Origin: Candidatus Hydrogenedentota bacterium | GTDB lineage: Bacteria; Hydrogenedentota; Hydrogenedentia; Hydrogenedentales; SLHB01 | DNA length: 64,000 nucleotides | Direction: 5' to 3' | Assembly (NCBI GenBank): GCA_035450225.1 | Contig: DAOTMJ010000027.1 | Span: forward strand, 2,631 to 66,630 | Shown: one piece after another, positions 3,472-57,562 of the stretch | Layout: each line of letters starts with the position of its first letter | How positions within the stretch are numbered: the first letter of the stretch is position 1 | Notes under the pieces: model-generated | Seen by the model: the letters and a program-made list of their open reading frames with translations, nothing else | What the model was told of the DNA's origin: nothing | Database searches by the model: none | Position numbers and translations under genes: made by a program

Positions 3472-3474
3472 GCC

Positions 3475-15019: not shown

Positions 15020-15067
15020 GGCGACGTGTGGCGGCCCGGCGGCGCGCCGGTCCTTCTTGATGAATGT

Positions 15068-16135
15068 TCATATGAAATTGACGTGATCCGGAGGGTGCTT
15101 GAGATCCCACAGGTACCGGTTTACCTCGTCCATCCGGCAGTTGATGCGACATTGGTGCGCGTCCATCTCGTTTTGAACCCACGCGATGACCGCCCGCCGC
15201 TGTTCGCCGTTCCAGATTTCCCCGAAGGTATTCTCGTACAGGTTTCCCAGCAGGAACCGTTCATCGCCGAGATAATTGCAGCAGCCCCACACCTTGCCCG
15301 CGGCGTCAATGTATGTCCAGAACGACATCGCGTAACAGCGGTCATACGAACGGGCCGCCTCATCCCATTTGCGCATCGCGTGCGCTCGGAAAACGACCGT
15401 GAAATCGGGCGTGTTGAACCGCCGCAATTCTTCCGCGAGGGCGAGATCCTGCTCGTAGGAAACCTCCCGGTACTCGTCCGTGATGCTGAGTGGATGCTGC
15501 GAATACGGCTTGATTGCGAGATAATCCATGCCGATATCGCGCGCAATGCCGGCCAGCGTGACCGCTTCGGTCCGGTTTTCCGGCAACAGGATCATCTGTA
15601 GGCCAAGGGCGCAGGCCCACCCGTTGGCCCTTCGCATCTGGGCGGCTTGCTGGAGATTTTCGATGACGGTGTCGAAATCGCCCGGCTGCGTGCGGTGCAG
15701 ATAGGCGTAGGTGTCCCGTGTGCCCGCGTCGAAACTGACCCGGACCCATTGCGCATGCGGAAGAATCGCCTCCGCCTTTTCGGGCGTGAACAGGACCCCG
15801 TTGGTATTGAGCGCCTGATCTATGCCCGCGGCCTTGCCGGCCTGAATAATCTCCGCCATGTGTTTGTGCAGCAGCGGCTCCCCCTCCCCCGCGTGCATGA
15901 TGCTTTTGACGCCCAGGCGTCCCATTTCCGCCAGGCGCTCCCGGAACATGTCCCAATCGAGAAACCGCCGCTGGTACTTCATGAAGTCTTTGCCGCAGAA
16001 CCGGCACCGGTGGTTGCAGGCGCCCGAGGGGCTCGTCTCGATGTAGATGGGATAAACGTTATCCCCCTGCAGCCACGCGCCCACCCGTCCCGCGTGATAC
16101 ATCATCTTGTGGCTGTCTATGCGGAACTTGTCCAT
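15068..16135 (-). CDS. Radical SAM domain protein with C-terminal Cys-rich (SPASM-like?) region
   Basis: CNHRCRFC (CxxxCxxC) in the N-terminal third. Additional Cys at CCNYLG and CRINC near the C-terminus. Confidence 0.8.
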   Translation of the reverse strand: MDKFRIDSHKMMYHAGRVGAWLQGDNVYPIYIETSPSGACNHRCRFCGKDFMKYQRRFLDWDMFRERLAEMGRLGVKSIMHAGEGEPLLHKHMAEIIQAGKAAGIDQALNTNGVLFTPEKAEAILPHAQWVRVSFDAGTRDTYAYLHRTQPGDFDTVIENLQQAAQMRRANGWACALGLQMILLPENRTEAVTLAGIARDIGMDYLAIKPYSQHPLSITDEYREVSYEQDLALAEELRRFNTPDFTVVFRAHAMRKWDEAARSYDRCYAMSFWTYIDAAGKVWGCCNYLGDERFLLGNLYENTFGEIWNGEQRRAVIAWVQNEMDAHQCRINCRMDEVNRYLWDLKHPPDHVNFI

Positions 16136-16147
16136 GGGATTCCTGGC

Positions 16148-17689
16148 TTACTTCATCAACGAGGAGACGCTGCGGAAATACGAGACCGGGTCGAGATAGC
16201 TCTTGTTGCCGATGACGGCGCAGGCCGCCGCGCCCGCCACGTTCCCGATGAATCCGAGGATTTCGGTGGGCGCGCCGAGGGCCGCGCACGGCGCCGTCAG
16301 CGCGAGGCACGCGTCGCCCGCGCCGATGCGGTCCACGAGTTTCACGCTGAAGACCGGCGTGCGCGAAAAGCCGGTCCGCTCGTCGTAGCCGACCGTGCCG
16401 TTCTGGCCGCGGGTGAGCAGGAAACTCCGGCATTTCAACTGTTGGGCCAGCACCTGCGCGATGTTCTGGATGTCCACGTGCTTTTTCTTCATTTCGAGCC
16501 GCGCTTCCGGTTCGTCAATTGTCACGAAGTCCGCGCGCGGATACCGCGACACCAGATTGAAACCATAGTTGCCAGGGTTGACCTGTACGTTCAACGCCAG
16601 GAAAGGCGCCTTTTCGCACAAGACTTCGATTACCTTTTCCGTCATCAGCCCATGGCCATAATCCGCCACGATAACGACATCATGCTCCGGCGCCAGCGAT
16701 GCGACCTTTTCAATAAACGCCGCCTCGTCCTTGGGCAGCAGCGGATCGTCGTTCATCGCGTCGGTTTCCAGCAATTTGATGCTGAGATAATCCTCCAGGT
16801 AACGCCGCTTGACAATGGTCGGCCCGTCTGTTTTGCGGATGAAATGCAGGCCGACGTTGCCGTTCAGGTGTTCTCGGATGAATGCTTCCTGCGTGTCGTG
16901 GTCGCCCAGCGCCGTCAGGCAGTTCAGGCGGCCGCAGAATCCCGCCAGGTGGTTGTTGATGGCCTGGATGCCGCCTAGGTAGCGCTCCATGTACTTGAGT
17001 TTCGCGGCGAGAATGGGATCCTTGTTGGCCTTGTTCATCACGTCGCAAAAACAATACTCGTCAATGATCGTCTCGCCGATGGTGAGGATTTTGAGCGTGG
17101 CGATGTCACGCAGATACTTGAAGATATCTTCTTCGGAATAACGCGACCGGAATTCCTCGAGATACAGCCGCACTTCAGGGGAAAAAAGATCCGTGTACCG
17201 GTTGATCAGGGCCGATGCGCTGAACGTGTCCTCTTCCGTAAGATGGAGTTGGCCGCCGATGCTCCTGACCGCTTCCTCTTCCTTCAGGATGGCGCCGGTA
17301 TGATCGCGCAGGCCGGTTTCGTTTGTCGCGCCTTTCACAAAAAAATTGGGTTTCAGCAGGAGAATCGTTTCGACGGCGCTCGGCCACTTGTTGATGGCCA
17401 CATAATCCACGCATTCGAGCGCGGCCAAGGCCTCGGCGCGCAACTGGTCCGTGAAGACGGGCCGGTGCGGTCCTTTGTCCACGAAATGGTCCGGCGTCAG
17501 CGTGACGATGAGCACATCGCCCAGCCGACGCGCCGCCTGCAGATGTTTGATGTGGCCGATATGCAGCAGATCGAACACGCCGTGGCAATGGACGATGGTC
17601 TTGCCGTTCGCGCGTGCGGCGTCCAGTTTGGCCTTCAGATCGTCGAGGCTCATTATTTTTCCGGATAGAGGCACGGCATTCCGCTCCAT
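16148..17689 (-). CDS. Bifunctional cytidylyltransferase-like nucleotidyltransferase / PfkB-family sugar kinase (HldE-like, reversed domain order)
   Basis: The N-terminal ~140 aa carry HCHGVFDLLHIGHIKHL, the HxGH signature of the cytidylyltransferase superfamily. The C-terminal ~330 aa carry the PfkB signature DRIGAGDA. First gene of the operon. Confidence 0.75.
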   Translation of the reverse strand: MERNAVPLSGKIMSLDDLKAKLDAARANGKTIVHCHGVFDLLHIGHIKHLQAARRLGDVLIVTLTPDHFVDKGPHRPVFTDQLRAEALAALECVDYVAINKWPSAVETILLLKPNFFVKGATNETGLRDHTGAILKEEEAVRSIGGQLHLTEEDTFSASALINRYTDLFSPEVRLYLEEFRSRYSEEDIFKYLRDIATLKILTIGETIIDEYCFCDVMNKANKDPILAAKLKYMERYLGGIQAINNHLAGFCGRLNCLTALGDHDTQEAFIREHLNGNVGLHFIRKTDGPTIVKRRYLEDYLSIKLLETDAMNDDPLLPKDEAAFIEKVASLAPEHDVVIVADYGHGLMTEKVIEVLCEKAPFLALNVQVNPGNYGFNLVSRYPRADFVTIDEPEARLEMKKKHVDIQNIAQVLAQQLKCRSFLLTRGQNGTVGYDERTGFSRTPVFSVKLVDRIGAGDACLALTAPCAALGAPTEILGFIGNVAGAAACAVIGNKSYLDPVSYFRSVSSLMK

Positions 17690-17917
17690 AGGTTCAAACC
17701 GATGCTAACACACCCCTTGTTTGAAGGACAAACGAAGGAAACGACGGGATGGGTGCATCGAATGGCGCCCATAATCGTGTTTTCCCGGTTGAGAACCGCG
17801 CCGGCTATTTTAGTCTTCTGCTGTCGCGGCAATGACTAATGTTGTCGGGACGAAAAAAAGAGGAAAAGGCGCGCTTTTCGGCGGGTTGGAGAGGGTCGGG
17901 CGGGATCCGTTCGCCGG

Positions 17918-20074
17918 TTGCATTGCTTCCGCAAAAGGTATAACGTTGGGCTTCGTATTGAGCCCGTGCTACAGGCTGGTAAACGAATGGGGTGTACCGT
18001 GCACAGGAACATCGAGGAGGCGCTGCGCGAAAGCGAGCAACGGCTGCGCGCCTTGGCCGACAACCTTTCCAATGCCGTGGTTTATCAGTTGATGGCCGAA
18101 CCGGACGGCGGACGGCGCTTCACTTATATCAGCCGATCGGTGGAACGCCTGAACGAAGTAACTGTGGAGGAGGTGCTGGCCGATGCCGGGGCGCTTTACG
18201 GCCAGGTCTTGCCCGAATATCGCGCATTGGTTGCGGCACGCGAGGAAGAGGCCTTGAAAACACTCACTCCATTGCATGTCGAGGTGCAGAGCCGCCTTCC
18301 CGGCGGCCGCCTGCGGTGGTTTGAATTTACTTCCACTCCCCGTTATATAGCGGAGGGCGTTCTGGTCTGGGACGGGGTCGAAGTGGACATTACCGATCGC
18401 AAGCGGACCGAAGCGGAACTGGAAAGACTCGTTGCGGAGCGAACGTCGGAGTTGATCGAGACCAATCAGAGGCTGCTGAATGAGATTGCCGATCGGTCCC
18501 AAATGGAGATGTTGCTTCGGGACAGCGAGGAACGTTATCGGTCGCTTTATTGGGAGTCCCGGGACGCCATCATGGTTTTGTCGCCGGAAGAGGGTTTTTT
18601 GGCCGCAAACCCGGCCACGGCCGCCCTGTTTGCCTGCCGTGACGAGCAAGAGTTTATCACCCATTCGCCGGCTTCCCTGTCGCCGGAATTTCAGCCGGAC
18701 GGCATCCGATCGGATGTCAAGGTCCGTGAGATAAAGCGCCTTGCCCTGGAAAAGGGCTCCCGCTTTTTCGAATGGACGCATCGCCGGGTGGACGGGACTG
18801 AGTTTCCGGCCACGGTATTGCTTTCGGGTTTCAATTACTGCGGCAAGCGCCTGCTGATGGCCACTGTTCGCGACATTACCGAAAGCAAGCGAGCCGAAGC
18901 GGAACGGCGGGATCTCGAAAGGCAAGTTCAGCATGCGCAGAAACTGGAAAGTCTCGGCGTGCTTGCCGGCGGACTCGCCCACGATTTCAACAATATTCTG
19001 CATCTCATTCTTGGCAACGTGCATCATATCAAGAAAATCGTGTCGGATCTGTCGCCCGCCCGCCCGTTTATCGAAAATATCGAACGTTCCACGCGCCGCG
19101 CCGCGGTGTTGACGCGCCAGATGCTGGCCTACGCGGGCAAAGGGTCTTTCACTCTTCAAGTATTGAATTTGGGCGATCTTGTGGGCGAAATCGTCGGGCT
19201 GATTCAGTCATCCATGTCAAAAAAAGCGCGGTTGCGGCTGAATCTGGTCGGCGATCTTCCGCCGATAGAGGCCGACGCGGCCCAAATCCAGCAGGTGGCA
19301 ATGAATGTGATACTGAATGCGGCCGAGGCGTTGGATGCCGATGAGGGCGGCGAGGTGATCGTGTCCACTTCGGCGCTTTATTGTACGGAAGACGATTTGC
19401 GCGGCAGCCGTGTTATGTTTGGCGCTCCGGCGGGGGATTATGTTTGCCTGGAGGTGACTGATACGGGATGCGGAATGGACGGGGAAACTTTGGAACGGCT
19501 CTTCGATCCGTTTTTCACAACCAAATTCACGGGTCGTGGATTGGGAATGTCGGCGGTGCTCGGAATCGTACGCGCCCATAAAGGCGTCATCCTGGTTCGC
19601 AGCGCTCCGGGCGCGGGCACGACGGTCCGGATACTTCTGCCCGTGGCGGACCGTACTGATCCGGCGCCATCCGACAGCGCGCCGGCATCTGCCGCGGACC
19701 GGCCCTCATGCGCAGGCGTCATTTTGTTTGTGGACGACGAGCCTGACATGCTGGAACTCGGCGCCATGACGCTTGAACAGATGGGATATCGCGTTCTTAC
19801 GGCCGCCGATGGTCTGGACGCACTCGAATTGTTCGAGGAGCAATCGAAGGATATTGGCTGTGTGCTGCTCGATCTGAGCATGCCGCGCATGGACGGTGTG
19901 CAGACGCTGGCGGAATTGCGCCGAATCCGGCCGGATATCCCCGTCATTCTAGCGAGCGGTTACGCCGAACGCGAACTTCAATCGCGCCTGGCCGGCTTGG
20001 AAGTAAGCGCGCTGATCGAAAAACCTTACGATTTCGACAAGTTGGCGTCTATTCTGCAACAGGTGCTTGCCTGA
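17918..20074 (+). CDS. PAS-domain sensor hybrid histidine kinase / response regulator
   Basis: PAS regions, H-box LAHDFNNIL, HATPase GRGLGMS...GAGTTV, and a C-terminal receiver domain (ILFVDDEPDML...LLDLSMPRMDG). The true start may be downstream at MGCTV or a GTG. Confidence 0.85.
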   Translation: MHCFRKRYNVGLRIEPVLQAGKRMGCTVHRNIEEALRESEQRLRALADNLSNAVVYQLMAEPDGGRRFTYISRSVERLNEVTVEEVLADAGALYGQVLPEYRALVAAREEEALKTLTPLHVEVQSRLPGGRLRWFEFTSTPRYIAEGVLVWDGVEVDITDRKRTEAELERLVAERTSELIETNQRLLNEIADRSQMEMLLRDSEERYRSLYWESRDAIMVLSPEEGFLAANPATAALFACRDEQEFITHSPASLSPEFQPDGIRSDVKVREIKRLALEKGSRFFEWTHRRVDGTEFPATVLLSGFNYCGKRLLMATVRDITESKRAEAERRDLERQVQHAQKLESLGVLAGGLAHDFNNILHLILGNVHHIKKIVSDLSPARPFIENIERSTRRAAVLTRQMLAYAGKGSFTLQVLNLGDLVGEIVGLIQSSMSKKARLRLNLVGDLPPIEADAAQIQQVAMNVILNAAEALDADEGGEVIVSTSALYCTEDDLRGSRVMFGAPAGDYVCLEVTDTGCGMDGETLERLFDPFFTTKFTGRGLGMSAVLGIVRAHKGVILVRSAPGAGTTVRILLPVADRTDPAPSDSAPASAADRPSCAGVILFVDDEPDMLELGAMTLEQMGYRVLTAADGLDALELFEEQSKDIGCVLLDLSMPRMDGVQTLAELRRIRPDIPVILASGYAERELQSRLAGLEVSALIEKPYDFDKLASILQQVLA

Positions 20075-29565: not shown

Positions 29566-30729
29566 TCAATCCGTTTCGGGATGGATGATCACCTCGATCG
29601 GTTCCCGGATGCCCTGGACGGCCGCGTATTTTCGCAGACGGACCAAGTACGCGCTAGTCATGACGGTTCCGCGCGCGACAAGCGTCCTGCCCTGCGTGGT
29701 CAGGATGGGCGCGGCCAAGGTCGTGCCCGGTCCAAGGTCCTTGAATGCAATCGAGATGACCTTGCCCTTGTCGGCTTCCGGCGGCGCAACCACCGCGGGT
29801 ATTTTGGAAAACACGGCCAGCACGGCGGGATCGTATTTTTCCTCCTGGTCTTGCAGGGCCTTGACGCTGTCCATCCGCGACAATCCCCTGGATCGCAATT
29901 GAAGATAATCGGCGGCCACCTTCAGCACGCGGCTCCCCAGGGGGATTTCCTTGCCGGCCACGCGGTCGCGGGGAAAACCGGATCCGTCGAAATACTTGTT
30001 CTGATACATCACGATTCGGGCGACGTTTTCCAGCCGGGGAATGCGTTCGAGCAGTTCGGCCCCGATGGCGGGAACGCTTTCGACCGTCCGCTGTTCCTCA
30101 TCGTCGAGCGATTCGCCGCCGATGGCCTTCGTGAGAATTTCGGGCGGAAGGGCCAGCATGCCGATCTGGCACAGCATGGCCGCCAGTTCGATTTCCCATG
30201 TGTTTCCCATGCCCATTTTGGCGGTAATGGCCCGCGCCAAGTTGCGGAGATGCACGGAGCGACCGAATATTTCGGGATTGGCCCACGAGAGCACTTCGAT
30301 CAACAGTTCCGCCGTGCCCTGAAGCGTCCCCTCCAAGACCTCCTTCTCGGCGGTGACGAGGCGGTACTGCCGGATGGCGGCGATGAGCGACTCGCCCATC
30401 AGGGCGGCGGGGCACGGTTTTGTCAGAAAACGGAACACGCATCCCTCGTTGACGGCTTCCATGGCCAATTTGATATCGGCGTTGCCCGTCAACATGATTC
30501 GGACGGTGTCGGGCGCGATTTCGCGCACCTTTTTCAGAAATTCGATGCCGTTCATCAACGGCATGTGCATGTCGGCCACGACCACCGCGAAGGGGCCTTT
30601 TTCCTGGATTTCGCGCAGTCCGGCATGCGCGCCTTCCGCGGTGCGCACCCGCAGCACATGCTGTAGTTTCCGCTGGTACGCTTCAAGCACGTTCGCGTCG
30701 TCGTCCACAAAGAGCACACGTTCTTCCAC
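29566..30729 (-). CDS. Response regulator, REC + HDOD-like domain (degenerate HD)
   Basis: Likely GTG start at 30729 with a GAGAGGAGA RBS 2 nt after the upstream gene's stop. REC VLFVDDDANVL...VVADMHMPLMNG; the HDOD-like region has CQ in place of HD (AAMLCQIGML). Confidence 0.65.
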   Translation of the reverse strand: MEERVLFVDDDANVLEAYQRKLQHVLRVRTAEGAHAGLREIQEKGPFAVVVADMHMPLMNGIEFLKKVREIAPDTVRIMLTGNADIKLAMEAVNEGCVFRFLTKPCPAALMGESLIAAIRQYRLVTAEKEVLEGTLQGTAELLIEVLSWANPEIFGRSVHLRNLARAITAKMGMGNTWEIELAAMLCQIGMLALPPEILTKAIGGESLDDEEQRTVESVPAIGAELLERIPRLENVARIVMYQNKYFDGSGFPRDRVAGKEIPLGSRVLKVAADYLQLRSRGLSRMDSVKALQDQEEKYDPAVLAVFSKIPAVVAPPEADKGKVISIAFKDLGPGTTLAAPILTTQGRTLVARGTVMTSAYLVRLRKYAAVQGIREPIEVIIHPETD

Positions 30730-30731
30730 GG

Positions 30732-31943
30732 CTATTCGTCTCCTCTCTCGTCCATTTCCGCGCAGGCGTGTTCCCATTCGGGCAGGCGATCCGCCAGGCC
30801 CAGTCTTTCGAGGTACGCCAGGTCCACTTTCGAGGGGGGGCAGTTGAACAGTTCCTTGCGCCGCGCGAAGGCCAGCGCATCCGCGACATGGGTGGCGGCG
30901 AGAGGCGAGAAGGCATTTCCGATGGCGTCCATGGGCCGGTGATGAAACGCCACGGCCTCGACGATGGGATGCGGCAGCCCCCAGATGCCCAGCAGATAGG
31001 CGCCGACCTCGCCGTGCGTGCAGCCCAGCAAGGCTTTTTCGGCGGCCGCCAGCGGAAGGGACTCCGCGACGGCGCGATCGAAAACGCACGCGTAGTCCTC
31101 CGGGCAGGCGCTGGCCAGCACCAGTTCGCCCGTGTCGTGCAACAAACCCGCCGTGTAGGCGTCGTTTGCCGTTTCCTTGGGCGCCGATTCGGCGCGGCAG
31201 ATGGCCTGTACATAGGCGCCCACGATCATGCTGTGACGCCACAACGCGTCCAGCGAAAAGCCGCGGGGCAATTTCGCGCCTTCCAGCGGGGCGAAGAGGC
31301 CCGTGGTAAGAACCAACGCCCTGACCGTATTCAATCCAAGCAGGGAGACGGCCTGGGTGGCGCTGGCCACCTGCCGCCTGAGACCAAAGAAAGCGGAGTT
31401 GGCCAGTTGGAGTATTTTCGCGGTCATGGCCAAATCGGTCTCGATGATGCGGCCCACGTCCGCAATCGAACTGTCCGGCGATTTCAGCGCCTCGCACAGT
31501 TTCGCATAGACCCGCGGAACCGGCGGCAGCGCGCCGATCTGCGCCACGACGGCCTTCAGGGAATCGCTCGACAGCAATTCGCGCAGGGCAAAGGCCCTGT
31601 CCACGCACTCCTTCAACAGCGCCGGCTTGCAGGGCTTGCTGAGGAACTGGTGCGCTTCCCCCACCGACCGATAGAGGGTTTCGCTGTCCGACTGGCCGGA
31701 CAAGACGAAACGCAATGTGTCGGGATGGCGCTTCTTGACCTCGGCCAACAACCGGCTGCCATCCATGCCGGGCATGCGCATGTCGGTCACGACGACATCG
31801 AAATGACGGGCTTCGAGCTGTTCGAGCGCCTGCGCGCCGCTCCGGGCAAAGGCCATCTCCCATTCGCGCTGCATCGGAAACAGCATCCGTCGCAATCCAT
31901 CCAGCACGTTGGGCTCGTCGTCAACAAAGAGAATGCTTTTCAT
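30732..31943 (-). CDS. Response regulator, REC + HDOD domain
   Basis: MKSILFVDDEPNVL...VVTDMRMPGMDG receiver; HDOD with AGLLHDTGELVL. Confidence 0.8.
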   Translation of the reverse strand: MKSILFVDDEPNVLDGLRRMLFPMQREWEMAFARSGAQALEQLEARHFDVVVTDMRMPGMDGSRLLAEVKKRHPDTLRFVLSGQSDSETLYRSVGEAHQFLSKPCKPALLKECVDRAFALRELLSSDSLKAVVAQIGALPPVPRVYAKLCEALKSPDSSIADVGRIIETDLAMTAKILQLANSAFFGLRRQVASATQAVSLLGLNTVRALVLTTGLFAPLEGAKLPRGFSLDALWRHSMIVGAYVQAICRAESAPKETANDAYTAGLLHDTGELVLASACPEDYACVFDRAVAESLPLAAAEKALLGCTHGEVGAYLLGIWGLPHPIVEAVAFHHRPMDAIGNAFSPLAATHVADALAFARRKELFNCPPSKVDLAYLERLGLADRLPEWEHACAEMDERGDE

Positions 31944-32001
31944 GTCCGCCTCCCCGTTCGGATAAACCGGGAACCTTCAACGGCCGCGGCCGAAACAGGG
32001 T

Positions 32002-33126
32002 TCATTCGCCCTCTTCTCCGAATCGATCGTACACCTCCACAATATGGTTGTTTTCGTCGAGAAACGATTCGAGCATGCGCGGATCGAAGTGGCTTCCCTC
32101 GCCTTTTTGCAGGATGGCGACAGCCTCCTCGTTGCTCATGGCGGGTTTGTAGGGCCGTTTCGATCGCAGGGCGTCGTAGACGTCCACCAAGGCGACCATG
32201 CGCGCCTCGACGGGGATGTCCTCGCCGGCCAGCCCGTCCGGATATCCGGAACCGTCCCATTTCTCGTGATGGCTGCGCGTGATGACGGTGGCCATTTGCA
32301 GCAACGGGGACGGCAGCGCCTCGTCGTCCGTCGTATATCCGTTCGGGATGGCCTGCGCGGCCATCATGATGGATTTGGGCGGCTGCCGCAGAATGCTTTC
32401 GCCGATTTCCGTGTGAGTTTCAATCACGGCCCGCTCCTCCGGCGTCAAGGGGCCTTCCTTGAGCAGAATCTTATCCGGAACGCCTATTTTTCCGATATCG
32501 TGCAGCGGGCTGGTCAGAAAAAGCAATTCCGCGAACCCGCCGTTTCTTCCCATCCTCCGGGCAAGGATGTAGGAACACCACGCGACGCGCGCCACGTGAT
32601 TGCCGGTCTGGTCGTCGCGGAATTCGCCCGCCTTGGCCAGCCGCCACACGACCTCGCGGTGCGATTTTTCCAATTGCCGGGTGCGTTCGCGGACAAGGCC
32701 ATCCAGCACTTCGACCTGGTTCGCGAGATGATCCTCGAATTCCTTGATGCGGATTGCGCTTCGCAAGCGGGCGATCAGATCCTCGCGGCCCACGGGCTTG
32801 TTCAACAGATCGGTCGCGCCCAGATCGAGCACGCGCCGCTTCAGCGTCCGATCGCCTTCGCCGGTGAGGATGATGATGGGGATCCGGGATAATGCCTCGT
32901 CGCCGCGCACGGCCTCGAGGAGGGCGATGCCGTCCTTTTTGGGCATGCGTATGTCCGACACGATCACGTCGAACGCCTCGCGGCGCAGCGCGTCGAGCGC
33001 GTCGTCCACGCCGGTGCAAAAGACGCCTTCCCACGGCTCGCCGCACAGGTCCAGCAAACGCCTCAGGACTTCGAGCACGTTCGGTTCGTCGTCAACGAAC
33101 AAGAGTCTCTTTTTCCCTTTGGTCAT
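32002..33126 (-). CDS. Response regulator, REC + HD-GYP phosphodiesterase domain (c-di-GMP)
   Basis: LLFVDDEPNVL...VVSDIRMPKKDG receiver. HD-GYP motifs HDIGK and HHEKWDGSGYP. Confidence 0.85.
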   Translation of the reverse strand: MTKGKKRLLFVDDEPNVLEVLRRLLDLCGEPWEGVFCTGVDDALDALRREAFDVIVSDIRMPKKDGIALLEAVRGDEALSRIPIIILTGEGDRTLKRRVLDLGATDLLNKPVGREDLIARLRSAIRIKEFEDHLANQVEVLDGLVRERTRQLEKSHREVVWRLAKAGEFRDDQTGNHVARVAWCSYILARRMGRNGGFAELLFLTSPLHDIGKIGVPDKILLKEGPLTPEERAVIETHTEIGESILRQPPKSIMMAAQAIPNGYTTDDEALPSPLLQMATVITRSHHEKWDGSGYPDGLAGEDIPVEARMVALVDVYDALRSKRPYKPAMSNEEAVAILQKGEGSHFDPRMLESFLDENNHIVEVYDRFGEEGE

Positions 33127-33132
33127 ATTCCT

Positions 33133-34410
33133 TCACCCTTCGACAACGGGCAGCCGAATGATGAACGCCGTTCCTTTTCCGACCTCGCTTTCGACGGAAA
33201 GGGTTCCGCTGTGCTTGTTCACCACGACGTTCCGCGCGATGGCCAATCCCTGGCCGGTGCCCTTGCCCACTTCCTTGGTGGTGAAAAACGGATCGAAAAT
33301 GCGGTCGCGGAACTCGTCCGGTATGCCGGTTCCGGTGTCGGAAATGCGAATCTCCACCCAATCGCCGTCGCGACGGGTGCTAATCATGATTCGTCCCTTG
33401 GTTTCCGAACCGTCGCCGACAACGTCTGCGATAGCGTGCGCCGCGTTCACGATCAGATTGAGAAAGACCTGGTTGAGTTCGGCCGGCAGACACCAGACAC
33501 GGGGCAGACTCGGGTCCAGGTCCATTTCGAGATCGGCCACGTATTTCCATTCGTTGCGCGACACGGTGGCCGTGCTCTCGATACAGTGATTGATGTCCGC
33601 GAGGGTCTTCTCCGTCACGCCGGGATGCGAGAATTCCTTCATCGCCTGGACGATGGACGTGATCCGTCCGATGCCCTCGATGGACTGCGCGATGGCGCGG
33701 GGGATTTCGTTCGCAAGGTACTCGAAATGGGCCGTTTCATTCAGATCGCGGGCCTCGTTCAACAGATCCGGCGGCAGGGCGTCCGCCGCCGGCGATTCCA
33801 TCAGCCTGCGAAACAGGTTTATCAGGGCCACGATGTCCGCGTGGGCCGACTGGAGGAATTCGAGGTTGTCGCCCACGTATTGCGCGGGCGTGTTGATCTC
33901 GTGGGCGATGCCCGCGGCCAGGCGTCCCACCGATTCCAGTTTCTGCGCCTGGTTGAGGGCGCGTTCGAGTTGGAGGGCCGTACGCGTTTCGTCCGCCTCG
34001 GCTTCCATTTTCCGCGCGTGCCTGTGCGCGCGGCGGTATTCGCCGGCGCGGCGGATGGTGTGTTCGAGCAGATGCGGGTTGCAGGGCTTTTCGAGAAAAT
34101 CGAACGCGCCCAGTTTTACGGCCTTGACGGCGCGCGGAATGTCGCCCTTGCCCGTCAGAATGACGGGAACGGTGTCCGGATGTTTCCCGTGCATGGCGTC
34201 CAGCACCTGGAAACCGTCCAACTCCGGCATCTCGATGTCGAGCAGGGCCACGTCGAATTCCGCTTTGCCCATCGCCTCCATCGCGGCGGCGCCGTCGGAC
34301 ACGGTCTCGCACGCGAAACCCTTGCCCAAGAGTTCGCGCGCAACCAGTTTCAGCAGGTTCGGGTCATCGTCCGCGACGAGTACGCGGATCGCGTTGGTTT
34401 CAGCATCCAT
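33133..34410 (-). CDS. Response-regulator/histidine-kinase hybrid (REC-HisKA-HATPase)
   Basis: Start MDAETNAIRVLVADDDPNLL preceded by GGGAG. H-box IAHEINTP, N/G boxes, C-terminal GKGTAFIIRLP. Confidence 0.8.
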   Translation of the reverse strand: MDAETNAIRVLVADDDPNLLKLVARELLGKGFACETVSDGAAAMEAMGKAEFDVALLDIEMPELDGFQVLDAMHGKHPDTVPVILTGKGDIPRAVKAVKLGAFDFLEKPCNPHLLEHTIRRAGEYRRAHRHARKMEAEADETRTALQLERALNQAQKLESVGRLAAGIAHEINTPAQYVGDNLEFLQSAHADIVALINLFRRLMESPAADALPPDLLNEARDLNETAHFEYLANEIPRAIAQSIEGIGRITSIVQAMKEFSHPGVTEKTLADINHCIESTATVSRNEWKYVADLEMDLDPSLPRVWCLPAELNQVFLNLIVNAAHAIADVVGDGSETKGRIMISTRRDGDWVEIRISDTGTGIPDEFRDRIFDPFFTTKEVGKGTGQGLAIARNVVVNKHSGTLSVESEVGKGTAFIIRLPVVEG

Positions 34411-34575
34411 CTGCGGGATCTCCCATGGGGTTGTCCGGCAATCCGCGCGGCAGGCGGAAGGCCGGGAATTCAAGGGACGAACAGGACATCGGCGACCTGC
34501 CCCCGCGGAAGAAAAAAAACGGTACGGATGGCAGAAACGTAAACAACGTAGCAGAGGCTTCCATCTTCTTTTTGA

Positions 34576-34600
34576 ACGCGGCAAAGATGCCGCGTCTACG
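34576..34600. repeat. REP-like hairpin element, family B (ACGCGGCA-AAGA-TGCCGCGT + CTACG)
   Basis: Perfect 8-bp stem; intergenic between 33133..34410 and 34675..39129. Confidence 0.7.
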
Positions 34601-34674
34601 TTGAACACCCTTATATTCATCGTTCTTCCTGTTTACGACAAACCTCACACCAGCCGCCATCCACCAACTCCCGA

Positions 34675-52697: not shown

Positions 52698-53216
52698 TTA
52701 CGCGACGGCCAATCCGGCCAGGCGCCGCGAAACGGCCCCGTATCCCATGATGCGGGCAAGCGCCAGGGGCGTCAAACCGTCGAGATAAGGCGCCGGGACC
52801 AGCGGATCGGCGCACGCGTCGAGCAAGAGATCCGTTATCGCCGCGTTGCCGGTGATCGCGGCCCAATGCAGCGGCGTCAAGCCCTGCACGCATGCGGCGT
52901 TCGCGTTGGCGCCGGCATCGAGGAGCATCCGCGCAATATCGCTGTGCCCATTTCGGGCGGCCTTGTGAAGCGGCGTCTCTCCGATCGAATCGCGCAAGTC
53001 GGGATCCACGTTTTCCGACAACAACGCTTCGACCACGCGGCCCAAACCCAAGGCCGCCGAACGATGCAGCAGACTCGAACCGGCCAGCCCGCTTTCGCGG
53101 TCCGCCCGTTCCAGCTGAAGCATCAAGGACGTCAGAACGCCGTGGTTGCTGTGTTCTGCGCGGCTCAAAGGCGTCTCGAACGCATCGTCCATCGTGTTCA
53201 GCCATGTATTCGTCAT
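52698..53216 (-). CDS. Ankyrin-repeat protein
   Basis: At least four ANK repeats ([29 protein letters not shown]..., [13 protein letters not shown]...). Start MTNTW has a GGAGGAAC RBS. Confidence 0.7.
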
Positions 53217-53569: not shown

Positions 53570-56500
53570 ATGAATCTCCAGTGGGTTGACGAGAAATGCC
53601 ATGCGCTGGCTGTGCTGAAGCAGCAGGGACAGCATGAGGGCGCGTTGGCCGTCATTGGTGAACTCGAACCGCTGGTTCCGGGCAATATTCCGCTGCTTTC
53701 GCTTCGCGCGCAGCATTTGGCTGCGTTGGGCCGGAACGACGAAGCCGCGGTCTGTTGCGAAACGGCGCTCGCGCGCGTCCGCGAGGCGCAGGAAGACTGC
53801 GCCGCGATGCGCGATCTGCTGAGCGCGGAACAGTTGGACCATTGGCAGATGGTGCTGGAGGCGCTCGAACAGCCGATCGCCGCGCTCCGGGACAAACTCA
53901 AACCCAAACCCAAACCCGCGCGGGACGATCGCGAGCAATTGCAGCAGGTCGTCGAATCCTTGCGCCGCGAACTGCAACTCGTGCGCGGCATGGCCGAGGA
54001 AGCGTCGGATTCCGAGCGACAACTCGCCTCCGAAGTCGAGCGTTTGCGCGCGGAGGATGAGGCGAAGAAGAAGGCCCTCGAGGAAGCCCGCCGCGAACAG
54101 GAAGCGCTTCGGCAGTCGCTCGAGGCGCGCGAAGAGGCCTTGGCGGCGGCCGAACGCAGCAACGCCGAGCGCGAAGCCCAGGTTGCCTTGCTTCAATCCG
54201 AACTGGCGGCCCTCGGCGAACAGGCCCGTCGCACCGTATCGTCGGAACAGGCGCTGTCGGCGGAACTCGAACAGGTGCGCGCCAACGAACGCGCCAAATC
54301 GGAGGCGCTCGAACACGCGCGCGGCGAGTTGCAACAACTTATGCAGACGCTTAGCGAGCGCGAGGCCGCCATTGCCGAAGCGGAACGCCGAAGCGCGGAG
54401 CGCGAGGAAGTGCTGGCCCGGCTTCGCGGTGAAATGGACGGCCTGCGCAATCAGGCGGGGGATGCAGCCCGATCCGAGCAGGCGCTGGCGGCGGAAGTCG
54501 AGTCGCTCCGCACGAACGAGGCGGCCAAGGCCAAGGCGCTTGAAAATGCGCGGTTGGAACTCGAATCGCTCAAGACAGCCCTTCAGGATCGCGAAGCCGC
54601 CATTGCCGAGGCCGAGCGCAAGAACGCGGAACGCGAACGGGCAATGGCCGCATTGCAGCAGGAACTCGGCTCGCTGAAATCGCGCGCCCTACAGGCCACG
54701 GAATCCGAGGAACGCCTCCGGGACGAAGTGGATCAACTGCGGGCCACGGAAACGGCCAAGTCGCAACTGCTCGAGGGCGCGCGCGCCGAACTGGACGCGC
54801 TCAAACACGCGTTGGCGGAACGCGAAACGGCCATTGCCGAGGCCGAGCGCAAGAATGCCGAGCGGGAACGGTTGCTTGAGGCGTTGAATCGGGAAGTCCA
54901 GGGACTGCGGAATCAGGCGGCGGGCGCGGCCAACGCGCAGGAAGCCCTGTTGCGCGAGGTGGAACAGTTGCGCGCCAACGAGACGGGCAAGGCGCAACTG
55001 CTCGAGGCGGCGCGGGCCGAACTGGAAAGCGTGCGCGGGGCCCTGCGCGAACGCGAGGCGGCCGTGGCCGAGGCCGAGCGCAGGAATGCCGAGCACGAAC
55101 GGCAAATGGCGGCGTTGCGGGCGGAACTCGACAGTGTGCAGGAACGGACGCGCAAGGCGGCCGATTCCGAACGGCGCCTGCTGGCCGAAATTGAACAACT
55201 GCGCACCAATGAGCGCGCGAAATCGCGTGAACTTGAAGACGCCCGCAAGAATCTCGAATCGCTGGAACAGACGGTGCGCCGGCAGGAAGCCGCCGTCACC
55301 GCAGCGATTCAGAGCAATACCGAGAGCGAGGAGGCCATTGCCGCGCTGCAACGCGACCTCGCCAAGACCCGCGCGCTGGCCGAAAAGGCGGCGTCGTCCG
55401 AGCAGCGGCTCGTGTCGGAAGTCGAGCAGTTGCGCACGAACGAAAGCGAAAAATCGCACGCGCTGGGCGACGCGCGATCGGAACTTGAGCAACTCCGGGC
55501 GGCATTGGCCGAACGGGAAAGCGCCATCGGCGCGGCCGTGCACAGCCGGCAGGAACAGGAGCGCGAATTGGCCGCACTGCGCCGCGAACTCGAGGAATTG
55601 CACACGCATGCGGCCGATGCGTCGAGTTCGGAACAGGCGTTGATGGCGGAGATCGAACAACTGCGCGCCAACGAGCAGGCAAAAAGCGGGGAACTGGAAC
55701 AAGCCCGCAACGAACTGGCCGCGCTCAAGGAGTCGCTTGCGGCGCGCGAAGACGCCGTGGCGGCGGCCATGCGCAGCAGCGCCGAACATGAACAGGCCAT
55801 GGCGGTGCTGCGCGAGGAATTGAATGCGCTGCGCGGCCAAGCCGCGAAGGCCTCCAGTTCCGAGGAAGGACTGCGGGCCGAACTGGATCAACTGCGCGCG
55901 CAGGGCGACGCCAAGTCGCAGGCGCTGGACGAGGCCCGCGCCGAACTGGAAACGCTGAAGGGCACGCTGAACGCCCGCGAAGAGGCGATTGCCGAAGCGC
56001 GGCGCGGCCAATCCGAACAGGCGCAGGCCATGGCGGCGCTCCGGCAGGAATTGGAGGGCTTGCGCGCCTCGACAGCCCGCGCGTCCGATTTCGAGCGTGG
56101 CTTGCTTGCGGAAATCGAACAACTGCGATCGAACGGCGACGCCAAATCGAAGGCGCTGGACGAGGCCCGCGCGGAATTGGAAACGTTGCGCGCTTCGCTT
56201 ATGGAACGGGAAAAGGCCGCCGCCGCCGCCGAACACAGCCGCCTCGAACAGGAAAAAATTACCGAATCCCTTCAGCAGGAACTAACGCAACTGCGCGCGC
56301 AAACCCGGAATGCCTCGGCGTCCGAACAATCCCTGATGGAAGACCTTCAACAGATTCAAAGCCGCGAGCAGGCCAAATCGAAAGAACTCGAACGGGCGCG
56401 CGCGGAACTCGAAACCCTCCGCCAATCGCTGCAGGCGCAGGAAGAGGCGCTGGCGGCCGCCCGGCGCGATCGATCCGAACAGGATGCGGCCGTGGCGGCC

Positions 56501-57562
56501 ATGCAGCGGGAGCTGGACCGGCTTCACGGTGAAGCAGCCAAAGGATCGGACGACGAGGAACGCCTGGTACAACAAATGGAAGCTTTGCGCGCCGCGCAGA
56601 ACGCCAAAGCGGAAGAACTGGACAAGGCGCAAGCCGAATTGGAACGCCTCCGCGACCAACTGGAGAAAAAACCGGAGGCTGTCCCACCGGCGGGTCCACG
56701 GAGTTACACGCCGCCGCCTGAATCCCATCCCGCCGAAGCGCCCGCGCGCCGGGGCCTATGGCTTGCCCTTGCCGCCGCTTTTCTCGTGCTGGTTGTTGCG
56801 GGCGGAGGATACCTCCTGTTGAAAGGACGGGCGCCCTCCGAACCGGTTTCCGCGCCCATCGTCGCGACAACGCCTTCCCTGACGCCGGAGCCGATCCCAC
56901 CGCCCGCCGAACCGGCGCCGGTGGTGGACGAAAAACCCGCAGCGCCCGTGTTGCCGGAAGCGGACAAGCCGCAGGGGCAGCGCACATTGGTGTTTCCCAA
57001 CAACCGTTCGATGGGCCAGTTGTTCGAACGCGATTGGAATGCCACGGGCGCCAAACCATGGAAACCGATAGGGCGCGCCGAACGCACCATCACGATTCCG
57101 GCGGGGAAAGTCGTTAAACTGGTCGTGAATCAGAGCGACAGCAAGGACCTGTCGCCGCTGGTTCCCCTTGGCCCCGATGCCCTGCACACGCTTGTGCTTA
57201 TCGGCAACGATGTGACCGACGTCAGCATGGCTTCGCTGGCCGGCATGACCGGACTAAGACGGCTCGATGTCAATTCGAGCGGCGTGACGGATGCGGGGTT
57301 GAAGCACCTCGCGAACCTTTCCAACCTGCGCGAACTCAGCCTGGCCGGCCTCAAAATGACCGACGAGGGATTTTCCGTGATAAACCATTTTCCGTTGCTC
57401 GAATCGCTGAGCGTGACGGATTGCGCGATTACCAACGCGGTCCTTCCGCACGTGAAAAAACTGACCGGTTTGCGCCGGCTGACCATTTCGGGGACGAAGG
57501 TTTCGCAGGAAGGGATGACCCTGCTCAAATACGACATGCCCAAATGCGAAATCACCCCCTGA
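53570..57562 (+). CDS. 1330-aa coiled-coil tandem-repeat protein with single TM and C-terminal leucine-rich-repeat domain
   Basis: N-terminal TPR-like segment; about 11 copies of a 77-aa coiled-coil unit (...SEQAL.AE.EQLR.NE.AKS..LE.AR.ELE.L...L.EREAAIAEAER.NAERE...); TM RRGLWLALAAAFLVLVVAGGGYLLL; Pro-rich linker; LRR (LRRLDVNSSGVTDAGLKHLANLSNLRELSLAGLKMTD...). Confidence 0.7.
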   Translation: MNLQWVDEKCHALAVLKQQGQHEGALAVIGELEPLVPGNIPLLSLRAQHLAALGRNDEAAVCCETALARVREAQEDCAAMRDLLSAEQLDHWQMVLEALEQPIAALRDKLKPKPKPARDDREQLQQVVESLRRELQLVRGMAEEASDSERQLASEVERLRAEDEAKKKALEEARREQEALRQSLEAREEALAAAERSNAEREAQVALLQSELAALGEQARRTVSSEQALSAELEQVRANERAKSEALEHARGELQQLMQTLSEREAAIAEAERRSAEREEVLARLRGEMDGLRNQAGDAARSEQALAAEVESLRTNEAAKAKALENARLELESLKTALQDREAAIAEAERKNAERERAMAALQQELGSLKSRALQATESEERLRDEVDQLRATETAKSQLLEGARAELDALKHALAERETAIAEAERKNAERERLLEALNREVQGLRNQAAGAANAQEALLREVEQLRANETGKAQLLEAARAELESVRGALREREAAVAEAERRNAEHERQMAALRAELDSVQERTRKAADSERRLLAEIEQLRTNERAKSRELEDARKNLESLEQTVRRQEAAVTAAIQSNTESEEAIAALQRDLAKTRALAEKAASSEQRLVSEVEQLRTNESEKSHALGDARSELEQLRAALAERESAIGAAVHSRQEQERELAALRRELEELHTHAADASSSEQALMAEIEQLRANEQAKSGELEQARNELAALKESLAAREDAVAAAMRSSAEHEQAMAVLREELNALRGQAAKASSSEEGLRAELDQLRAQGDAKSQALDEARAELETLKGTLNAREEAIAEARRGQSEQAQAMAALRQELEGLRASTARASDFERGLLAEIEQLRSNGDAKSKALDEARAELETLRASLMEREKAAAAAEHSRLEQEKITESLQQELTQLRAQTRNASASEQSLMEDLQQIQSREQAKSKELERARAELETLRQSLQAQEEALAAARRDRSEQDAAVAAMQRELDRLHGEAAKGSDDEERLVQQMEALRAAQNAKAEELDKAQAELERLRDQLEKKPEAVPPAGPRSYTPPPESHPAEAPARRGLWLALAAAFLVLVVAGGGYLLLKGRAPSEPVSAPIVATTPSLTPEPIPPPAEPAPVVDEKPAAPVLPEADKPQGQRTLVFPNNRSMGQLFERDWNATGAKPWKPIGRAERTITIPAGKVVKLVVNQSDSKDLSPLVPLGPDALHTLVLIGNDVTDVSMASLAGMTGLRRLDVNSSGVTDAGLKHLANLSNLRELSLAGLKMTDEGFSVINHFPLLESLSVTDCAITNAVLPHVKKLTGLRRLTISGTKVSQEGMTLLKYDMPKCEITP
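53990..56675 (+). repeat. Tandem 231-bp coding repeats (~11.6 copies) inside ORF 53570..57562
   Basis: The GCC ATT GCC GAG GCC GAG CGC landmark recurs at 54371, 54602, 54833 and onward, exactly 231 bp apart. Confidence 0.8.

Follow-up and report, generated by a model that had tools for sequence, protein, structure and literature searches.

Organisation of the gene and its product

The window, 64 kb of DNA of a Hydrogenedentes bacterium not yet cultured, carries a long open reading frame whose product combines a repetitive coiled coil with a TPR-like head and an LRR domain. Is this frame, with its internal repeats, a real gene, how is its product built, and what could such a protein do in the cell? 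The features that bear on these questions are as follows.

52698..53216, minus strand: ankyrin-repeat gene, 172 aa as called (Ank_2 E = 1.8e-25); a place in the same system is not supported
53570..57562, plus strand: complete gene of the putative tether, 1330 aa plus stop, from the list of open reading frames
53570..53899, plus strand: N-terminal TPR-fold head, aa 1-110, five helices with an invariant Cys63
53900..53929, plus strand: flexible KPKPKP linker from head to rod, aa 111-120, AF2 pLDDT <50 at residues 113-119
53930..56701, plus strand: rod of 12 tandem 77-aa units, aa 121-1044, from the unit HMM, offset-77 identity and heptad phase
56753..56821, plus strand: single TM segment, ~aa 1062-1084 (GLWLALAAAFLVLVVAGGGYLLL), from Kyte-Doolittle hydropathy and flanking charges
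56822..56977, plus strand: Pro-rich extended linker on the predicted extracytoplasmic side, aa 1085-1136 (~52 residues), from the translation
56978..57559, plus strand: beta-cap and six or seven 24-aa LRRs, aa 1137-1330, from AF2, Foldseek and Pfam LRR_4

The frame at 53570..57562(+) is a real gene and encodes a conserved inner-membrane protein. The sequence GAGGA lies 9 nt 5' of its ATG, and at least 16 contigs carry the exact 1330-aa protein. Nothing suggests an assembly artefact, since the gene shows 0 nucleotide differences (100% nt identity) in four differently sourced assemblies (L001-L004); the worry that the repeats had been collapsed or expanded is also weakened by the fact that copies only 57% identical cannot collapse. 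Against the closest orthologue (L010, 75% identity), dN/dS was 0.115 for the rod, 0.15 for the head and 0.14 for the LRR domain. Judged by these ratios, together with the one-to-one correspondence of the repeat units, the gene is under purifying selection and functional.

On the 1330-aa protein no Pfam or NCBIfam family reached its cut-off except the generic LRR, and a full-text literature search returned nothing relevant. The original prediction of a family not yet described was therefore correct; it is assembled from known parts. The same prediction was sound on the architecture (a TPR-like head, a long coiled coil, one TM and an extracytoplasmic LRR domain, in that order), the TM helix, the LRR and the repeat period, but it erred on the number of units, the regularity of the nucleotide repeats, the pairing with the ankyrin gene and the variability of length in the query lineage.

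Head, rod, membrane segment and LRR domain

The head has the fold of the TPR superfamily, which is defined by tandem helix-turn-helix pairs of ~34 residues, and its TPR-fold domain is specific to the family beyond generic TPR similarity. In the rod that follows, an HMM of the unit matched twelve times, all matches being 77 apart, where eleven repeats had been counted before; the last unit degenerates past ~aa 1033. Each unit is 77 aa, exactly 11 heptads, with no indels. The period of 77 aa or 231 nt was confirmed, with an amino-acid self-identity of 47% at offset 77 (19% or less at offsets other than multiples of 77) and a DNA identity of 57% at an offset of 231 nt (~36% otherwise). The nucleotide repeats had been called highly regular, which is true of the period and not of the sequence: Tandem Repeats Finder reported nothing on the array, because the units share only ~47% aa and ~57% nt identity.

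Over the 132 heptads of the rod, 141 of the 169 LIVMF residues (83%) lie in a single a/d phase, and the spectrum of the rod has a peak at 3.5 residues. No stutters, linkers, hinge or heptad breaks were found in the rod, and AF2 gave one continuous helix from residue 120 to 351, across three unit boundaries, with pLDDT >90. As twelve indel-free 11-heptad units follow one another in one a/d phase, the ~924 residues have a computed length of ~137 nm, in agreement with the earlier estimate of ~130 nm. Mostly Glu is found at the g positions (43 negative, 8 positive) and mostly Arg/Lys at the e positions (51 positive, 28 negative), so that the g-to-e'(i+5) pairs are attractive in 37 cases and repulsive in 1. 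Antiparallel pairing is disfavoured, since like charges would meet in such packing. Conserved core positions of the unit hold charged and Ala residues (E29, E43, K46, R67), and under established coiled-coil rules Ala and charged core residues are typical of two-stranded rods. At the sequence level, the continuous a/d pattern and complementary g-e' charges are those of a canonical two-stranded parallel coiled coil, and the rod is probably a parallel, in-register dimer.

The rod is acidic, with a net charge of -50 across 924 residues. Among 118 units from 14 proteins, conservation reached 3.2 bits at d, 2.7 at a, ~2.2 at e and g and 1.1-1.5 at b/c/f; this peak at the helix interface (a/d), with the lowest values at b/c/f, suggests that the repeats are structural rather than docking sites. 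No long-range charge banding was found in the rod, the spectral power at 77/k (k = 1-6) being at most 3.4 compared with 35 at 7 residues.

The membrane segment and topology were assigned from hydropathy and the positive-inside rule (flanking charges). The best 19-residue window, aa 1065-1083, has a Kyte-Doolittle value of 2.35 and is the sole segment above 1.8; the next-best window in the protein reaches 1.26. A single equivalent maximum was present in 14/14 family members examined (KD 1.78-2.95). The N-flank carries more K+R than the C-flank in 13 of the 14, the query's own flanks being balanced (2 vs 2). Because of this excess, the absence of any N-terminal signal peptide or signal-like segment in the query, the presence of one TM and the frequent signals of LRR relatives (below), the N-terminus and rod are probably cytoplasmic and the LRR domain extracytoplasmic, in the periplasm.

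The modelled part of the Pro-rich linker has low AF2 confidence (pLDDT 62-74). The LRR domain after it was modelled with a pLDDT of 90.8 and a pTM of 0.80: a beta-cap with the motif FP..S.G..W..A.G precedes a solenoid in which strand and helix alternate every 24 residues (pLDDT >93), built of tandem LxxLxLxxN/C-type units as in the LRR superfamily. Pfam LRR_4 scored 29.3 bits on the tail (cut-off 27), and its PDB sequence matches were internalin/LRR proteins, so the LRR domain of the original prediction is well founded. Foldseek matched the tail model to many LRR structures with a probability of 1.00, and FBXL2, Roco LRR, ribonuclease inhibitor and InlB were found at E = 1e-6 to 1e-5; the repeats are closest to the RI/FBXL type.

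The module is homologous (E = 1e-32 to 1e-10) to capped LRR proteins of ~300 aa that occur on their own; two of these carry the labels Verrucomicrobia and Gemmataceae. Such proteins have the same FP..S.G cap and 24-aa LRRs but not the TM, rod or head. A signal- or anchor-like N-terminus was seen in 17/29 of these relatives. Internalins combine an N-terminal signal peptide and cap with 22-aa LRRs, an inter-repeat Ig-like domain and a cell-wall anchor. Assignment to the Listeria type was rejected, as internalin_A scored 21 bits against a cut-off of 1600, the repeats are of 24 and not 22 aa and the query has no signal peptide.

Family and gene neighbourhoods

The family is small (~25 clusters at 50% identity), and all taxon-labelled members are Hydrogenedentes except one fragment binned as Chloroflexi. 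L010 has the same 12 units as the query, matched one to one (identity 0.65-0.84 on the diagonal and 0.27-0.56 off it), from which the query array is judged, by sequence comparison, to be old and stable. A repeat number variable in length, as had been expected, was not found in the query lineage, where L010 has the same 12 and the four assemblies are identical; it does vary across the family, with 7, 8, 12 or 16-17 units. In one other lineage, variants that are 98-99% identical differ by 308 aa (4 units) or 301 aa (43 heptads), and departures of the unit from 77 residues are almost only by 3, as in the 74-residue period of P0004/P0005. Large deletions of whole units or heptads (308 aa, 301 aa) suggest that rod length is constrained.

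The ankyrin gene is genuine (its called frame could be extended from a TTG at 53483 to 261 aa) and is divergently transcribed, as had been stated. These facts, with the 353-bp gap that separates the two genes in the window, are what favours the proposal that they encode a functional pair of eukaryote-like repeat proteins. However, no ankyrin gene is present near the 75%-identical L010, tblastn with the ankyrin gene gave no match in any of seven homologue loci, gene calls showed none in an eighth homologue context, and the homologue neighbourhoods differ. The partnership with the ankyrin gene is not conserved, and the pair, already disfavoured, is to be regarded as very improbable.

A different neighbour recurs in the more distant homologues. 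A gene for MshEN+HDOD (or MshEN alone), MshEN being a c-di-GMP-binding domain type, is the immediate upstream neighbour, in divergent orientation, at L007, L012, L013 and L011, and at L005 it is removed by one gene; these five loci represent at least four lineages and are only 30-47% identical in that neighbour. L005 runs directly into flgBC-fliEFGHIJ, L011 lies near pilMNOPQ, and L008 is near FtsA-like, M23 and bactofilin genes. No MshEN-HDOD gene lies beside the query gene or L010, and the 64-kb window has a single HDOD gene, at 30732..31943 (minus), which encodes a receiver-HDOD protein and is not the MshEN-HDOD orthologue. Since the neighbourhoods are otherwise unrelated, context constrains function little. 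In relatives of the organism there are genes for a PilQ secretin and an LptC-like protein, a sign that an outer membrane is present.

A proposed transmembrane tether and its alternatives

The explanation that we favour, to which we give about an even chance, is that the 1330-aa protein is a bitopic transmembrane tether, spacer or landmark scaffold, N-in and C-out, and a parallel dimer. Two chains would pair parallel and in register to form an uninterrupted coiled coil of 132 heptads, ~137 nm long, whose membrane-proximal end would continue into the TM helices. At the distal end, a short flexible hinge would hold a small TPR head for protein binding, and across the membrane the ~52-residue Pro-rich linker would present the capped LRR to the periplasm. 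There the LRR might fix the molecule to the envelope or a periplasmic partner, while the TPR head might capture a cytoplasmic partner, whose distance from the membrane would be set by the stiff rod in quanta of 77 residues (11.4 nm). Of the functions that had been suggested, membrane tethering is still the best reading, one that we infer from the sequence. With less confidence, we suggest that the protein may act together with polar or motility machinery linked to c-di-GMP, because the divergent MshEN(+HDOD) gene lies directly upstream at four distant loci and one gene off at the fifth.

TipN has N-terminal TM anchors and is not known to carry an LRR, a TPR or a regular 77-residue repeat. It resembles the query in being membrane-anchored and rich in coiled coil, but no homology was detected, and the partner at the homologue loci is MshEN-HDOD, not an EAL protein. 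In Caulobacter, TipN is a landmark that places the flagellum together with the c-di-GMP-binding TipF (PMC3792480, PMC4085708). FimV/HubP of Pseudomonas and Vibrio are, according to PMC12918733 and PMC8789113, polar organisers tied to pili, flagella and second-messenger pathways. As described there, they are bitopic inner-membrane proteins that are anchored through a domain in the periplasm and cross the membrane once; their cytoplasmic region is very long, acidic and repetitive, and a protein-binding domain of TPR type sits at its membrane-distal end. The query shares the single TM and long acidic cytoplasmic region as a matter of design, which is not evidence of homology; its chain polarity is reversed (head N-terminal, periplasmic domain C-terminal), an LRR stands in place of LysM, and a canonical heptad coiled coil in place of acidic, largely disordered repeats. 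No LysM, FimV or HubP model of Pfam or NCBIfam matched the query, and the FimV C-terminal TPR model was not among the NCBIfam matches at E <= 0.01. Membership of FimV/HubP was rejected, given the N-terminal TPR and the periplasmic LRR; the tether resembles FimV/HubP or TipN in logic and is not homologous to them.

A special case of the tether, tentative but the foremost of the alternatives, is a landmark or hub at the cell pole, acting in the manner of FimV/HubP or TipN. The LRR would anchor at an envelope site while the acidic rod and TPR head recruit the MshEN-HDOD c-di-GMP receptor and position flagella or type IV pili. The conserved MshEN(+HDOD) neighbour, the adjoining flagellar operon and pilMNOPQ cluster, the acidic charge of the rod and the PMC12918733 account of FimV/HubP layout all agree with this, as does the action of TipN with c-di-GMP-controlled TipF (PMC3792480). 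However, that synteny is missing at the query and its closest orthologue, L008 lies near the other genes listed above, sequence homology to FimV, HubP or TipN is absent, and conservation at the helix interface rather than the surface is unlike a multivalent docking scaffold. A membrane-attached element of intermediate-filament type (crescentin, FilP, Scy), whose rods would associate side by side to give filaments or a submembrane lattice, is quite unlikely. It could draw on the long dimeric rod and on weak compositional matches to the crescentin rod, tropomyosin and SMC coiled coils, but these fall far under the cut-offs (Rod_CreS 22 bits vs 100, in homologue P0001 only; SMC 99 vs 567), the rod has neither the charge banding that would drive staggered assembly (<=3.4 vs 35) nor the stutters or linkers typical of such rods, and its surface positions are poorly conserved.

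The remaining two readings are less probable still. An extracytoplasmic, M-protein-like fibrillar adhesin would have head and rod outside and the LRR in the cytoplasm; its order of head, repeat-bearing parallel coiled coil, Pro-rich region and C-terminal membrane segment is superficially that of M proteins. The surface adhesin of the original prediction nevertheless appears unlikely, since the highly charged 1060-residue N-terminal region has no signal peptide, the charges flanking the TM favour N-in (13/14 members), most relatives of the LRR module (17/29) are secreted or anchored proteins, and a periplasm, which the PilQ and LptC-like proteins of relatives indicate, would have no room for a rod of 137 nm unless the rod lay flat. 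It is just as hard to credit a transmembrane receptor in which ligand binding by the periplasmic LRR would send a signal along the helix to the head in the cytoplasm. Although an extracytoplasmic LRR is indeed joined through one TM to a continuous helix, no member has an output domain (kinase, cyclase or similar), unit number runs from 7 to 17 between members, and we know of no precedent for a conformational signal that travels 137 nm through a two-stranded coiled coil.

M proteins, tropomyosin and myosin rods are two-stranded parallel heptad coiled coils with superimposed repeats and Ala or charged core residues, the streptococcal M protein rod being anchored at its C-terminal end. Compared with the M protein, the query rod probably lies in the cytoplasm, has more than double the length and shows no break in its heptads, and a folded LRR domain follows; myosin-like charge periodicity was not found in it. 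Some homologues carry the JGI label 'chromosome segregation ATPase'. Proteins of the SMC/Rad50 type have N- and C-terminal halves of an ABC-type ATPase head, a hinge and a coiled coil that is antiparallel within the chain. This type was rejected, because SMC_prok_B (99 bits, cut-off 567) matched over coiled-coil segments only, Pfam found no P-loop domain, there is no hinge or heptad break and the e/g charges disfavour antiparallel pairing.

Eukaryotic golgins and the nesprins of the LINC complex, which are tail-anchored tethers made of coiled coil or spectrin repeats, join a capture head, a rod of at least 100 nm, a TM and a small lumenal or extracytoplasmic domain. The query follows the same logic by analogy, in a bacterium and with no homology; to our knowledge, Hydrogenedentes have no internal membrane system. 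By this analogy the protein could be a bacterial molecular ruler or tether that fixes the spacing between a specific cytoplasmic structure and the inner membrane, a reading that we consider unlikely. If it were so, length would be set genetically in 11.4-nm quanta, at ~80, 91, 137 and ~190-200 nm across Hydrogenedentes lineages, the structure held would be a nucleoid region, storage granule, internal compartment or motor-associated complex, and the periplasmic LRR would couple it mechanically to the envelope. For the favoured tether itself, it would be unusual for a rod of 137 nm to project into a cell whose width is perhaps 500 nm, and the rod may lie along the membrane instead.

Domain layout of the 1330-residue protein

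The gene is an uninterrupted open reading frame on the plus strand of the window (53570..57562, 1330 aa), with a GAGGA motif 9 nt 5' of its ATG. Scans of the locus found no sigma-70-like promoter, and terminator-like sites did not exceed the shuffle expectation. The original prediction of a TPR-like head, a coiled coil, one TM helix and an LRR domain was borne out by AF2, heptad phase, hydropathy, Pfam LRR_4 and Foldseek. The protein is laid out as follows.

Layout of the protein
aa 1-110: TPR head of five helices, pLDDT ~90 (AF2, 10-sequence family alignment)
aa 111-120: hinge KPKPKP, AF2 pLDDT < 50
aa 121-1044: rod of 12 units of 77 residues, exactly 11 heptads each, 132 heptads
~aa 1062-1084: hydrophobic (TM) stretch, best 19-residue window aa 1065-1083, Kyte-Doolittle 2.35
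~52 residues between TM and beta-cap: Pro-rich linker
Tail: small beta-cap with motif FP..S.G..(W)..A.G, then six or seven 24-residue strand/helix repeats

By superfamily the head is a TPR, the tail an LRR and the rod a canonical coiled coil. A Pfam search of the protein gave no TPR model at E <= 0.01. When the head profile was run against 1.84 billion representative proteins, ~25 clusters matched end to end at their N-termini; beyond those, it found thousands of generic multi-TPR proteins with repeated matches to profile positions ~10-68. Cys63 (window 53756-53758) is the sole invariant Cys of the head (10 of the 10 aligned family members), and the 924 residues of the rod contain no Cys, Trp or Tyr.

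The rod had been described as eleven units encoded by highly regular 231-bp repeats. A repeat-unit HMM built from the 77-residue rows raises the number to 12 units, spaced by exactly 77 throughout, and aa 121-1044 can be written in such rows with zero indels. Protein self-identity reaches 44-47% at the multiples of 77 (77, 154, 231 and higher) and no more than 19% at any other offset. The regularity thus holds for the period, which is exact, but not for the nucleotide copies, which are only 57% identical at offset 231 (background ~36%). Tandem Repeats Finder reported no arrays in 52-59 kb of the window because the DNA copies have diverged too far, so the periodicity is shown through offset identity instead. 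At 54001-56000 of the window AT skew (0.355) and GC (0.668) both peak; the cause is the rod's codon usage, rich in Ala/Glu/Arg/Gln, and not a replication signal.

A single a/d phase holds 141 of the 169 Leu/Ile/Val/Met/Phe of the rod, Fourier analysis gave a peak at 3.5 residues and nowhere else, and no stutter, stammer or skip was found across the 132 heptads. AF2 predicted one unbroken helix from 120 to 351, across three unit boundaries, with pLDDT mostly > 90. A rise of 0.1485 nm per residue gives the rod a length of 137 nm. Its net charge is -50. Glu predominates at g, with 43 acidic against 8 basic residues, and Arg/Lys at e, with 51 basic against 28 acidic, so placed that 37 g-to-e'(i+5) pairs are attractive and 1 is repulsive. 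By coiled-coil rules attractive g-to-e' pairs mark parallel in-register packing, and antiparallel packing would juxtapose like charges; the 37:1 pairing is therefore the signature of a parallel, in-register rod, and we infer a parallel dimer. The core positions of the unit hold conserved Ala (22, 25, 53, 74) and charged residues (E29, E43, K46, R67), both common in the core of two-stranded rods.

Mean information by heptad position, over 118 units, was 3.2 bits at d, 2.7 at a, 2.3 at e, 2.2 at g, 1.5 at b, 1.3 at c and 1.1 at f. Conservation that is highest at d/a and least at b/c/f means that selection acts on the contact between helices and on length, not on outward-facing residues, and speaks for a structural rod over a row of identical docking sites. 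Periodic surface docking sites were unsupported for the same reason, and the myosin-like charge periodicity of staggered lateral assembly was not found in the rod. Matches to SMC, Rad50, ATG16, CCDC39, crescentin and tropomyosin all fell far under cut-offs and reflect coiled-coil composition only; an SMC-like identity was further rejected on the lack of an ATPase and of a hinge.

The TM segment is the only stretch with a Kyte-Doolittle mean > 1.8, and hydropathy revealed no hydrophobic N-terminal segment. In 13 of 14 family members the 15 residues that precede the TM hold more K+R than the 15 that follow it; the protein studied here is balanced (2 vs 2). The positive-inside rule and a 1060-residue charged N-terminal region with no signal peptide point to a cytoplasmic head and rod and a periplasmic C-terminus, that is, to a putative N-in/C-out topology. 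By our own very rough estimate the Pro-rich linker would span ~15 nm when fully extended and could reach the wall.

AF2 modelled the LRR tail with pLDDT 90.8 and pTM 0.80, and Foldseek matched the model to FBXL2, Roco LRR, ribonuclease inhibitor and InlB. Pfam LRR_4 was above cut-off in the tail, and a PDB sequence search returned internalins and designed LRRs. The capped LRR module also has stand-alone relatives of ~300 aa, two of them labelled Verrucomicrobia and Gemmataceae. A signal- or anchor-like hydrophobic N-terminus is present in 17 of the 29 module relatives that start with Met, which fits an extracytoplasmic LRR.

Age, constraint and unit number in the family

The array had been open to the objection of an assembly collapse or expansion artefact. 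This objection is weak: the 3993-nt gene showed 0 differences from the window in all four loci compared, and an assembler cannot collapse or expand copies that are 57% identical. The exact protein was found on at least 16 contigs (ENA, JGI and one NCBI MAG).

A single-protein scan of genome contigs returned a sole relative, an orthologue ~75-80% identical at L010, a locus of a 'Candidatus Hydrogenedentes bacterium' MAG of a second species. The units of the two proteins correspond one-to-one for all 12, with a diagonal identity of 0.65-0.84 and an off-diagonal identity of 0.27-0.56, and the array is therefore older than the split of the two species, its units evolving independently and not in concert. 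At a dS of ~1.1 between the two genes, the rod has a dN/dS of 0.115, the LRR 0.14 and the head 0.15; all parts of the protein are under purifying selection.

A whole-protein search gave 11 clear homologues, and all those with a taxon label are Hydrogenedentota; a 100%-identical fragment of the protein carries the Hydrogenedentes label. The head-profile search added a few further full-length members. P0048, a partial N-terminal sequence of 128 aa with 70% identity to the head, is filed at NCBI as 'Chloroflexi bacterium', probably through a binning error, since all other labelled family members are Hydrogenedentes. The order of head, 77-residue units, TM and one or two capped LRR modules is common to all members, and the number of units differs.

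Unit number across the family
7 units and a long disordered spacer rich in Q/P/S: four proteins
8 units: six proteins
12 units: the protein studied here and its L010 orthologue
16-17 units: the homologues P0004 and P0005

In P0004 and P0005 the rod period becomes 74 residues in the second half (77 minus 3, one stutter per unit). P0009 and P0011 are 98-99% identical to P0004 (GCA_038916785.1 lineage) but shortened by in-frame deletions: a large one of 301 aa, equal to 43 heptads, or of 308 aa, which is exactly 4 units, as well as minor ones of 43, 6 and 3 aa. The variants reflect either a unit-number polymorphism between strains or differences between MAG assemblies. The variable repeat number of the original prediction is thus found across the family (7, 8, 12 and 16-17 units), mostly in heptad-compatible steps, but is unsupported for this lineage, where unit number is fixed.

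No description of the family was found in Pfam, NCBIfam or the literature on Hydrogenedentes coiled coils and MshEN/HDOD/c-di-GMP, so that the architecture indeed belongs to no described family and we rate it an undescribed scaffold variant. The family is a small, membrane-anchored coiled-coil scaffold type, so far almost only in Hydrogenedentes.

Gene neighbourhood and candidate function

The gene is flanked on one side by a MacB-type ABC/MFP efflux operon and the divergent ankyrin gene, and on the other by galK and a MalK-like ATPase. The ankyrin neighbour is genuine (Pfam Ank_2, E = 1.8e-25). No ankyrin gene was present in the gene tables of eight homologue contexts, including the closest orthologue, nor in Pfam scans of the L010 neighbours, and tblastn of the ankyrin protein against seven homologue loci gave no match. 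The proposal that the two genes form a 'eukaryote-like' pair is therefore unsupported.

The recurring divergent neighbour at the homologue loci, in at least four lineages and not in the window, encodes a zinc-ribbon + MshEN + HDOD protein.

MshEN genes beside family genes at distant homologue loci
L007 6200-7723, minus strand: zinc-ribbon MshEN+HDOD gene, directly upstream of the family gene
L012 1405-2925, minus strand: zinc-ribbon MshEN+HDOD gene, directly upstream of the family gene
L013 280-1554, minus strand: zinc-ribbon MshEN+HDOD gene, directly upstream of the family gene
L011 6841-7842, minus strand: MshEN gene without HDOD, upstream of the family gene
L005 4145-5671, minus strand: zinc-ribbon MshEN+HDOD gene, one gene removed from the family gene

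The MshEN and HDOD domains are above Pfam cut-offs, and the five proteins share 30-47% mutual identity, except the L007/L012 pair (74-75%). MshEN is a c-di-GMP-binding module, and its combination with HDOD appears not to have been characterised. At L005 a flgBC-fliEFGHIJ operon (11903-19720) lies directly downstream of the family gene on the same strand, and at L011 the family gene adjoins pilMNOPQ (1-5010; pilM/O and a secretin); some Hydrogenedentes MAGs thus encode flagella and type IV pili. The L008 family gene has genes for FtsA-like, M23 peptidase and bactofilin proteins in its vicinity. A ~580-aa unannotated gene that seemed shared upstream of L010 and L005 proved to be two unrelated genes (BLASTP E = 0.68).

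The protein could well be a tether or spacer across the inner membrane, a reading that we hold at about even confidence. The LRR would bind an envelope or periplasmic component, with the extended Pro-rich linker possibly reaching the wall, the TPR head would bind a cytoplasmic client, and the rod would fix the distance between the partners on the two sides or run along the membrane as a strut. We give some additional weight to a specific version of the tether, in which the protein serves as a hub associated with the pole or with motility and works with the MshEN-HDOD c-di-GMP receptor of the distant loci; the synteny is absent at our locus and at L010, and we consider this version unlikely. 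That the rod would build an IF-like filament is still less probable, given that it has no stutters and no charge banding and that its surface conservation is weak. The chances are slight for an M-protein-like external fibril, as the topology evidence points the opposite way, and we give as little credence to receptor signalling, no family member having an output domain. Partnership with the divergent ankyrin protein is equally improbable, because the pairing is not conserved.

In model bacteria, coiled-coil scaffolds anchored in the membrane organise the cell poles, division and motility, but each phylum seems to have its own invention. The family would be the Hydrogenedentes counterpart of such scaffolds in other phyla; we know this phylum mainly from metagenome-assembled genomes, with essentially no cell biology. 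Closest to the tether in design is FimV/HubP, which is described as a periplasmic anchor, a TM, a long acidic cytoplasmic region and a terminal TPR domain (PMC12918733); also close is TipN/TipF, a coiled-coil landmark with a c-di-GMP effector (PMC3792480). In contrast to FimV/HubP, our protein has no LysM and no FimV C-terminal domain, and its chain polarity is reversed. Pfam and NCBIfam models detected no homology to FimV/HubP or TipN/TipF, and by its predicted domains the protein falls outside the known hub systems on their defining features.

What is unusual is how regular this giant rod is, in a phylum of which little is known; the component folds are all ordinary and the function we propose is read from sequence. 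The rod is an unusually clean natural case of length quantisation, with exact 11-heptad units, no stutter in 132 heptads and 7, 8, 12 or 16-17 units by lineage, and each of the two large deletions among the near-identical variants removes a whole number of heptads. Given a host or heterologous system, the idea that the length of the rod sets a cellular distance is thereby directly testable through deletion or insertion of units, and the rod could be a model for designing long, rigid protein spacers.

Elsewhere in the window, a receiver-domain cluster occupies 29566-34620 on the minus strand.

30732..31943, minus strand: REC-HDOD
32002..33126, minus strand: REC + HD-GYP-like, with HDIGK and HHEKWDGSGYP motifs
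33133..34620, minus strand: REC + histidine kinase

The first of these, the sole HDOD gene in the window, was considered as the missing MshEN-HDOD partner and rejected, since it is a receiver-HDOD protein and sits in a two-component cluster 22 kb from the family gene. At 5669-6793 on the minus strand is an ORF resembling dnaN (beta sliding clamp), followed by a ~740-bp gap (6794-7532) with no ORF >= 100 aa; block 6001-8000 has 42.5% GC (~60% elsewhere in the window), and the region could be origin-proximal or foreign DNA. Going by its translation, the ORF at 7533-8693 on the plus strand may encode a secreted protein of BNR/sialidase-like type, as it shows four Asp-box (SxDxGxTW) motifs and is hydrophobic near the N-terminus.
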